Under the pieces are notes generated by a model that was not told the origin of the DNA, searched no databases, and was given only the letters and a program-made list of their open reading frames with translations. A program made the translations under genes and the position numbers. From a virus, in the UHGV virus genome UHGV-1723398: DNA of 10,323 nucleotides; one strand, written 5' to 3'. This document shows, in pieces, positions 9,665 to 10,323 of this stretch. Numbering within the stretch: position 1 is the first letter of the stretch; each line of letters starts with the position of its first letter.

Positions 9665-10323
9665 TGGCTGATTCGAATCTCAATGAGCCGGTAATCATTC
9701 AGGCTACACGACTCGACACATCAGTCCTTCCACGCAATATCTTCTCGCAGTCGTATCTGTTGTACGTTATCGCACAGGGTGCTGATGTTGGTAACGTGGC
9801 GAACAAGGCCAACGAAGCAGGGAAGGGGGCTTATGATGCACAGGTGAAGAATGATGAGCAGGATGTCACCCTTGCAGACCATGAATCCAGAATTGCTGCT
9901 GCTGAAGCAACTCTCGTCAATCATGAACATAGAATCGCAGCAGCGGAAAGCACTCTTGCAGATCATGAAACAAGGATTACTGCTGCCGAAACAGAGCTGG
10001 CTGATCACGAGACGCGAATTGCTGCCAATGAATCTGAGTTAGCAAACCATGATGCGCGAATAACTCAGAATACAACCGATATCAACGCACTTGATACCAG
10101 GCTCACAGCGGCAGAGGGAAGTATTTCGACGCTACAAAGCACAGTTGGTGATCACTCAACAAGAATATCTGCGCTTGAGTATGCCACCACGCGCAATAAA
10201 TCAGAGGTTGTTTACTCAGGAGTATCGGTAACCATTCCAACAGCGCCGACCAACCTTGTTAGCCTGCTGAAAACGCTCACGCCGTCATCCGGGACGTTGG
10301 CACCATTCTTCGATACTGATCAC
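9664..10323 (+). CDS. Tail needle / cell-envelope-penetrating protein, P22 gp26 family (3' partial, 220 codons in window)
   Basis: My own translation of this frame from 9664: [68 protein letters not shown]... closely resembles the P22 gp26 N-terminal gp10-binding domain as I recall it, followed by a repetitive coiled-coil region. No stop codon before the window end. It is absent from the ORF track because it runs off the edge. Confidence 0.85.
9871..10080 (+). repeat. In-frame 42-bp (14-aa, two-heptad) tandem repeats, 5 clear copies, inside the tail-needle gene
   Basis: Consecutive 42-nt units encode [14 protein letters not shown] / [14 protein letters not shown] / [14 protein letters not shown] / [14 protein letters not shown] / [14 protein letters not shown]; a sixth, degenerate unit ([14 protein letters not shown]) extends to 10122. 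Copies differ largely at synonymous positions. Confidence 0.8.

Follow-up and report, generated by a model that had tools for sequence, protein, structure and literature searches.

Which kind of tail needle is encoded by the gene that runs off the 3' end of the viral genome UHGV-1723398, and what does this needle carry at its tip? The stretch of DNA analysed here (10,323 nt, referred to as the window) ends within an open reading frame. The initial annotation had proposed that its product continues past a coiled coil into a C-terminal knob domain cut off by the window end. Our analysis leads us to the same domain: with a probability of about 0.95, the truncated frame at the window end belongs to the tail needle gene of an E. 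coli phage or prophage from the P22-like group (Lederbergvirus, Sf6-type), and its product is a knobbed needle of Sf6/HS1 type that falls into the long-shaft HS1 subtype.

Results

The last gene of the window encodes a tail needle

The needle reading frame starts with an ATG at 9664–9666, which overlaps the TAA stop codon of the upstream gp10 homologue (TAATG, 9662–9666), and stays open for 220 codons up to the last base of the window. There is no competing reading frame of at least 60 residues on either strand in the region 10100–10323; the frames found there (22–46 residues, without support) were rejected as alternatives. Residues 1–79 align with the N-terminal residues of 5BU5, a needle of 233 residues, and of the P22 gp26 structures (E-value 1e-40 or better), and residues 1 to about 120 match needles of the P22 gp26 family for which structures have been solved. 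The features of the gene are compiled in Table 1.

The genomic context is that of a P22-like morphogenesis module. Genes are arranged in the order terS, terL, portal, scaffold, coat, gp4, gp10 and needle, with a small terminase of Sf6 type, a P22-like portal and a P22 coat protein. At the DNA level, Sf6, Gally, HK620 and many E. coli prophages show about 97% identity to this module. The needle gene directly follows the gp10 homologue, as is the case in Sf6, JEP4, Gally and 720R6. The window contains the upstream half of the P22-like gene order (gp4, gp10, needle); the downstream part, with a gp14-like (DUF2824) gene and the genes for ejection proteins, is seen in the relatives only. We identify the last gene of the window as a needle gene from a P22-like E. 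coli phage or prophage (Lederbergvirus); the fragment places the phage among the P22-like phages of E. coli/Shigella type.

Some further observations concern the upstream genes. Two reading frames precede the terminase genes, one for a regulatory protein of the Rha family that ends in an ORF11CD3 domain at its C-terminus (170–724, 184 residues as listed, GTG start) and one for a DUF2560 protein (1077–1319, 80 residues). The portal reading frame (3173–5371) is listed from the GTG at 3173, which leads to an overlap of 70 nt with terL. If translation began at the in-frame ATG at 3245, located three bases past the terL stop codon (3240–3242), the portal protein would have 708 residues; the Pfam portal match begins at residue 38 of the longer version. 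A 61-residue reading frame between the coat and gp4 genes (7595–7780) is without Pfam match, and an equally placed reading frame is annotated as 'hypothetical protein' in 720R6, JEP4 and E. coli prophages.

Table 1. Features of the needle gene in the window.
Feature	Position	Strand	Evidence
Tail needle gene (P22 gp26/Sf6 gp9 homologue), 5' 220 codons	9664..10323	+	Open frame; similarity to gp26 structures and the knobs of 3RWN and 4K6B; position directly after gp10 homologue
N-terminal virion-binding domain (gp10 channel plug), residues 1–60	9664..9843	+	Residues 1–79 aligned with needle structures; plug role from Leavitt 2013, Li 2022
Trimeric coiled-coil shaft, residues 61–172, 16 uninterrupted heptads	9844..10179	+	Heptad layout; AlphaFold model of P0010; HS1 description
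Tandem DNA repeat in shaft, 42 nt (14 residues, two heptads), 3 copies	9867..9990	+	Tandem Repeats Finder: period 42, 3.0 copies, 68% matches
First 47 residues (174–220) of 144-residue Sf6/HS1-type knob	10183..10323	+	PF16532; identity to 4K6B; HS1 knob = codons 174–317; model strands from 179
Asn178 (AAT), Lys (AAG) in nearly all relatives	10195..10197	+	K in 109, N in 2 of 111 representatives; DNA alignments
Glu181 codon, L-glutamate contact between knob subunits (HS1, Sf6)	10204..10206	+	GAG; Leavitt 2013; E181 in 111/111 representatives
His220 (CAC), last codon, Asn (AAC) in relatives	10321..10323	+	DNA alignment; N/T/A/S, never H, in 111 representatives

The shaft has 16 heptads

When residues 61–172 are written in rows of seven, Ile or Leu occupies the third position of all 16 rows. 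The shaft contains no Pro and two Gly in 113 residues. Its boundary with the knob lies between E172 and Y173 (nt ~10180), which is three codons past the start given in the initial annotation. The peptide noted there is present: position 10171 opens codon 170 (Ala) of the needle frame, and the noted string begins with L171.

A 42-nt tandem repeat within the shaft encodes heptad pairs of the form L-x-D/N-H-E-x-R-I-x-A-A-E. This repeat could plausibly serve as the substrate on which heptads have been gained and lost among relatives. Database relatives with a knobbed needle are 268, 282, 289, 296, 303, 310, 317, 324, 331, 338 and 345 residues long and thus differ in steps of one heptad; in 96 of the best 120 protein matches, the length is 2 modulo 7, while the knob is nearly constant. 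In these knobbed needles, it is the length of the shaft, not the knob, that varies. The 345-residue relative (P0008) contains a 28-residue duplication in the shaft.

Similarity to HK620 stops at ~9863 (needle residue ~67, at the start of the shaft), as it does for other phages having needle genes without similarity to the knob; for Sf6-type phages it extends past this point. Position ~9863 marks a mosaic junction within the gene, where the shaft begins.

The window contains the first third of an Sf6-type knob

At about residue 173/174 (nt ~10180–10183) the sequence turns non-helical and rich in Pro, Val and Thr. Residues 174–220 include four Pro and two Gly, and 18 of the 47 residues are V, I, Y, F or T. 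This bears out the initial annotation, which had described a change of character after the repeats in a frame without a stop codon. Residues 170–220 alone (10171–10323) match the Pfam family PF16532 (Phage_tail_NK, 'Sf6-type phage tail needle knob'; gathering score 27) with 98.7 bits and an E-value of 3.8e-28, covering profile positions 28–76 of 175. For the whole fragment of 220 residues, the score is 130.1 bits and profile positions 1–76 of 175 are covered. The 51 residues from 10171 also match the PDB entries 4K6B and 3RWN with E-values of ~1e-27. Because of these E-values, the change of character at the window end is far beyond chance. Residues 165–218 align without gaps to chain residues 9–62, with 52 of 54 residues identical to 4K6B (HS1 knob) and 51 of 54 to 3RWN (Sf6 knob). 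The position of the knob was confirmed as the C-terminal end of a gp26-like needle, right after the last heptad of the shaft. Residues 179–220 correspond to the first strand and loops of the knob, which is all of the jellyroll that lies inside the window.

Since the P22 gp26 structures share the N-terminal domain and the beginning of the shaft, a P22-type needle, with a helical tip just beyond the window and no knob, had to be considered. However, in the alignments to the P22-type needles 2POH, 3C9I and 5BU5 nothing is aligned beyond residue ~183, and what is aligned consists of the N-terminal domain and coiled-coil repeats only, whereas residues 174–220 match the knob family (E-value 4e-28) and are Pro-rich, with a predicted strand and loop. 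A P22-type tip is excluded by the Pfam and PDB matches inside the window. A stop codon a few codons further on, preceded by a helical tail, was found in no close relative; their stop codon is located 97 codons past the window.

The knob has been described as a homotrimer of TNF-like jellyrolls in which three L-glutamates sit between the subunits, the contacts being Glu181, Lys235, Ser283 and Asp285 (PMC3741392). Glu181 is encoded in the window (Table 1). The other three residues are beyond it and are invariant in a 30-sequence alignment of relatives.

Relatives predict a complete knob beyond the window

To relate the fragment to full-length needles, all 220 residues were searched against 5.8 billion proteins; the following counts refer to the best 120 matches. 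PF16532 is present in 118 of them. In 91 of the 96 relatives carrying the FFD motif, exactly 103 residues extend from this motif to the C-terminus. As F215 is inside the window, this spacing leads to a predicted full length of 317 residues; the missing part would consist of about 97 codons and the stop codon (about 294 nt). It is predicted to continue like NNKMVVFNENKTLFFKLSIVGTWPSGTANRSMQLTFSGSVPDTLVSSRN.ATTTDNILLATFFSVDKDGFLATNGSTLTIQSNGAAFTATTIKIIAEQ, the continuation of the window's own molecule being inferred from the relatives rather than read. A search with residues 136–220 only retrieved seven proteins, most of them partial, and the exact last 33 bases of the window had no match in the viral and genome contig collections.

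The closest relatives have needle genes of this length. Phages vB_EcoP-720R6, JEP4 and Gally show 95–98% DNA identity and have a needle gene for 317 residues each. In E. coli prophages in Combat2C1 and Ecol_881, where the 317-residue product is annotated as 'tail needle knob protein', the last 174 bases of the window are found identically but for two substitutions. A full-length prophage relative matches 4K6B over residues 165–317 with an E-value of 1e-89 (phmmer).

Structure prediction and comparison with the Sf6 knob, as proposed in the initial annotation, were carried out with the relative P0010 (98% identical, 317 residues). Its AlphaFold2 model has a continuous helix from residue 42 to 175 (pLDDT 94–98) followed by a beta-rich domain with strands from 179 to 316. 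In a Foldseek search with this model, 4K6B and 3RWN came first (TM 0.86, normalised to target); later matches were BclA, EDA-A1, PRD1 P5, TNF and C1q (E-value ~1e-4).

The proposal of an Sf6-type knob truncated by the window end is supported by the family match, the identity to the HS1 knob and the complete knob of the 317-residue relatives. Its description as a variable domain did not hold. Over 111 full-length representatives, the knob (last 144 residues) has a median identity of 98% to P0010, and knob differences among P22-like phages were reported to be at most 4.9% (Leavitt et al., 2013, PMC3741392). A divergent group of knobs, 75–81% identical to P0010, includes proteins named from Klebsiella, Serratia and Citrobacter.

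The gene might also be a damaged copy: if a frameshift, insertion sequence or prophage deletion truncated the knob beyond the window, the phage would make no functional one. Damaged relatives do exist, such as P0009 (263 residues, with unrelated residues at the end) and P0095 (188 residues, with an out-of-frame tail). IS3/IS600 elements occur in the matched region of some related E. coli prophages, small P22-like prophage remnants which keep the needle gene are mentioned in Leavitt 2013 (PMC3741392), and two unusual substitutions (N178, H220) are found near the window end. On the other hand, all eight upstream morphogenesis genes are intact and of full length in comparison with the Pfam models, the needle frame has 220 open codons which are 98–99% identical to intact 317-residue genes, and the great majority of FFD-carrying relatives (91 of 96) are complete. 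We therefore regard a damaged copy as improbable and a complete knob as the expected continuation.

Sequence differences close to the window end

Compared with the Combat2C1 and Ecol_881 prophages, the window has its two substitutions at 10197 (T for G, K178N) and at 10321 (C for A, N220H). Asn178, which sits three residues before the L-glutamate-contacting Glu181, results from a single-base change near the end of the sequence and could be a real variant or an end error. H220 likewise is a single-base change, and either a real variant or an end-of-read error. One might take the two residues as signs of a knob variant with altered ligand binding, or as the lead-in to a divergent distal part. 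Such a reading is not required, since 2 of 111 representatives also have N178 and one altered base in the final codon accounts for H220; we consider it very improbable.

In its last 12 bases, the window has four differences from the phage relatives. Together with H220, which is absent from the 111 representatives, and with the known mosaicism of P22-like needle genes (e.g. the end of HK620 similarity within the gene, see above), this might indicate another junction at the window end, with a different, undescribed tip domain past the FFDT sequence. However, three of the four terminal differences are common to E. coli prophages which continue into the standard knob, folding would be unlikely with a junction in the middle of the jellyroll, and none of the best 120 matches combines the first third of the knob with a different C-terminus. 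The only non-knob C-terminus, that of P0096, resembles a P22-type tip; as the match to this protein covers 72% of the query, the two sequences may well diverge ahead of the knob. The probability of such a junction is close to negligible, and the standard knob remains our reading. A recombination junction or inserted element in the last 12 bases was also rejected, as three of the four differences are those of prophages with a normal knob.

P0096 itself, from Serratia ficaria (290 residues), is 68% identical over the matched part and has the N-terminal domain and much of the shaft in common with the window. Its C-terminus ...ALEEALRGHGLIN resembles the P22-type tip and illustrates the swapping of tip domains on similar shafts.

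Discussion

Assignment to the HS1 subtype

The published HS1 needle has 317 residues and 16 heptads, compared with 11 heptads in Sf6 and P22, and its knob is encoded by codons 174–317; Ser169 is one of the differences between HS1 and Sf6 (Leavitt 2013, PMC3741392). The 16 heptads were counted in the window, whereas the total of 317 residues is inferred from relatives. Because the heptad number, the length of the relatives and Ser169 fit the published HS1 needle, we assign the needle of the window, at the sequence level, to the long-shaft HS1 subtype and not to the knobless P22 type. A fitting annotation is 'tail needle protein, Sf6/HS1 knobbed type, partial (3' end missing, about 97 codons)'.

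Proposed function

By analogy to Sf6, HS1 and P22, the following picture may be drawn. The N-terminal plug domain of 60 residues would bind the gp10 hub, followed by the trimeric coiled coil of 16 heptads and the C-terminal knob of 144 residues. Each knob subunit would be a TNF-like jellyroll, and three of them would form the trimer; the bases from 10183 onwards encode the first 47 residues of each subunit, with the remaining ~97 residues and the stop codon predicted within about 294 nt beyond the window. The base of the needle is expected to plug the tail channel and to retain the DNA. The needle would project past the tailspikes, touch the outer membrane and be released when ejection starts. 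Its tip domain may affect how DNA delivery proceeds kinetically, and not which host is infected.

Several published data are relevant here. The needle reaches beyond the tailspikes and is placed to touch the outer membrane first (Leavitt 2013, PMC3741392; Li 2022). According to cryo-ET work on P22, as cited in PMC9400499, its loss precedes the formation of the trans-envelope conduit by the ejection proteins. The initial annotation had considered the knob as possibly host-interacting. In the sense of host specificity this is contradicted by P22 chimeras carrying Sf6 or HS1 knobs, which infect Salmonella normally and have an unchanged host range (PMC3741392). Mutations in the glutamate site had no evident effect. 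With several other tip alterations K+ release became slower, so that a role in ejection kinetics is indicated (PMC3741392).

The fragment represents a protein that is already known and structurally solved (Sf6, 3RWN; HS1, 4K6B), and it matters little beyond its correct annotation. The distribution of knobs and their lack of effect on host range have been published, and the question pursued in the field, the role of the knob and of its bound L-glutamate, is not advanced by the fragment.

Comparison with known needles

The needle of HS1 (an E. coli prophage; locus EcHS_A0316, knob structure 4K6B) has the same plug domain and a shaft with the same number of heptads (16), and its knob likewise begins at residue 174. 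The identity of residues 165–218 to the 4K6B construct includes Ser169, and the nearest full-length relatives have the HS1 length. A difference is Asn178 in the window, which is Lys in HS1; the likeness to HS1 refers to the knob construct and to the dimensions of the needle. Phage relatives such as 720R6 have Val-Asn in place of Asp219-His220 of the window.

Sf6 gp9 (Shigella phage, 282 residues, knob structure 3RWN) has the same gene position, N-terminal domain and knob family. Its knob is identical to residues 174–218 of the window except for K178N. In contrast, its shaft is shorter by 35 residues (five heptads), which appear as gaps of 14, 14 and 7 residues in the BLASTP alignment.

P22 gp26 and the needle 5BU5 (233 residues) are knobless but have a homologous N-terminal plug domain and proximal coiled coil. 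They also have the same role, as a channel plug and membrane-contacting needle. The distal tip of the P22 type is a wholly different domain, with no knob and no similarity to residues 174–220 of the window.

Finally, trimeric jellyroll knobs of the TNF/C1q-like type (PRD1 P5, adenovirus fibre knob, BclA) belong to the same fold class as the needle knob, a resemblance stated in Leavitt 2013 (PMC3741392). With 8–16% sequence identity, this likeness is at the level of the fold alone.
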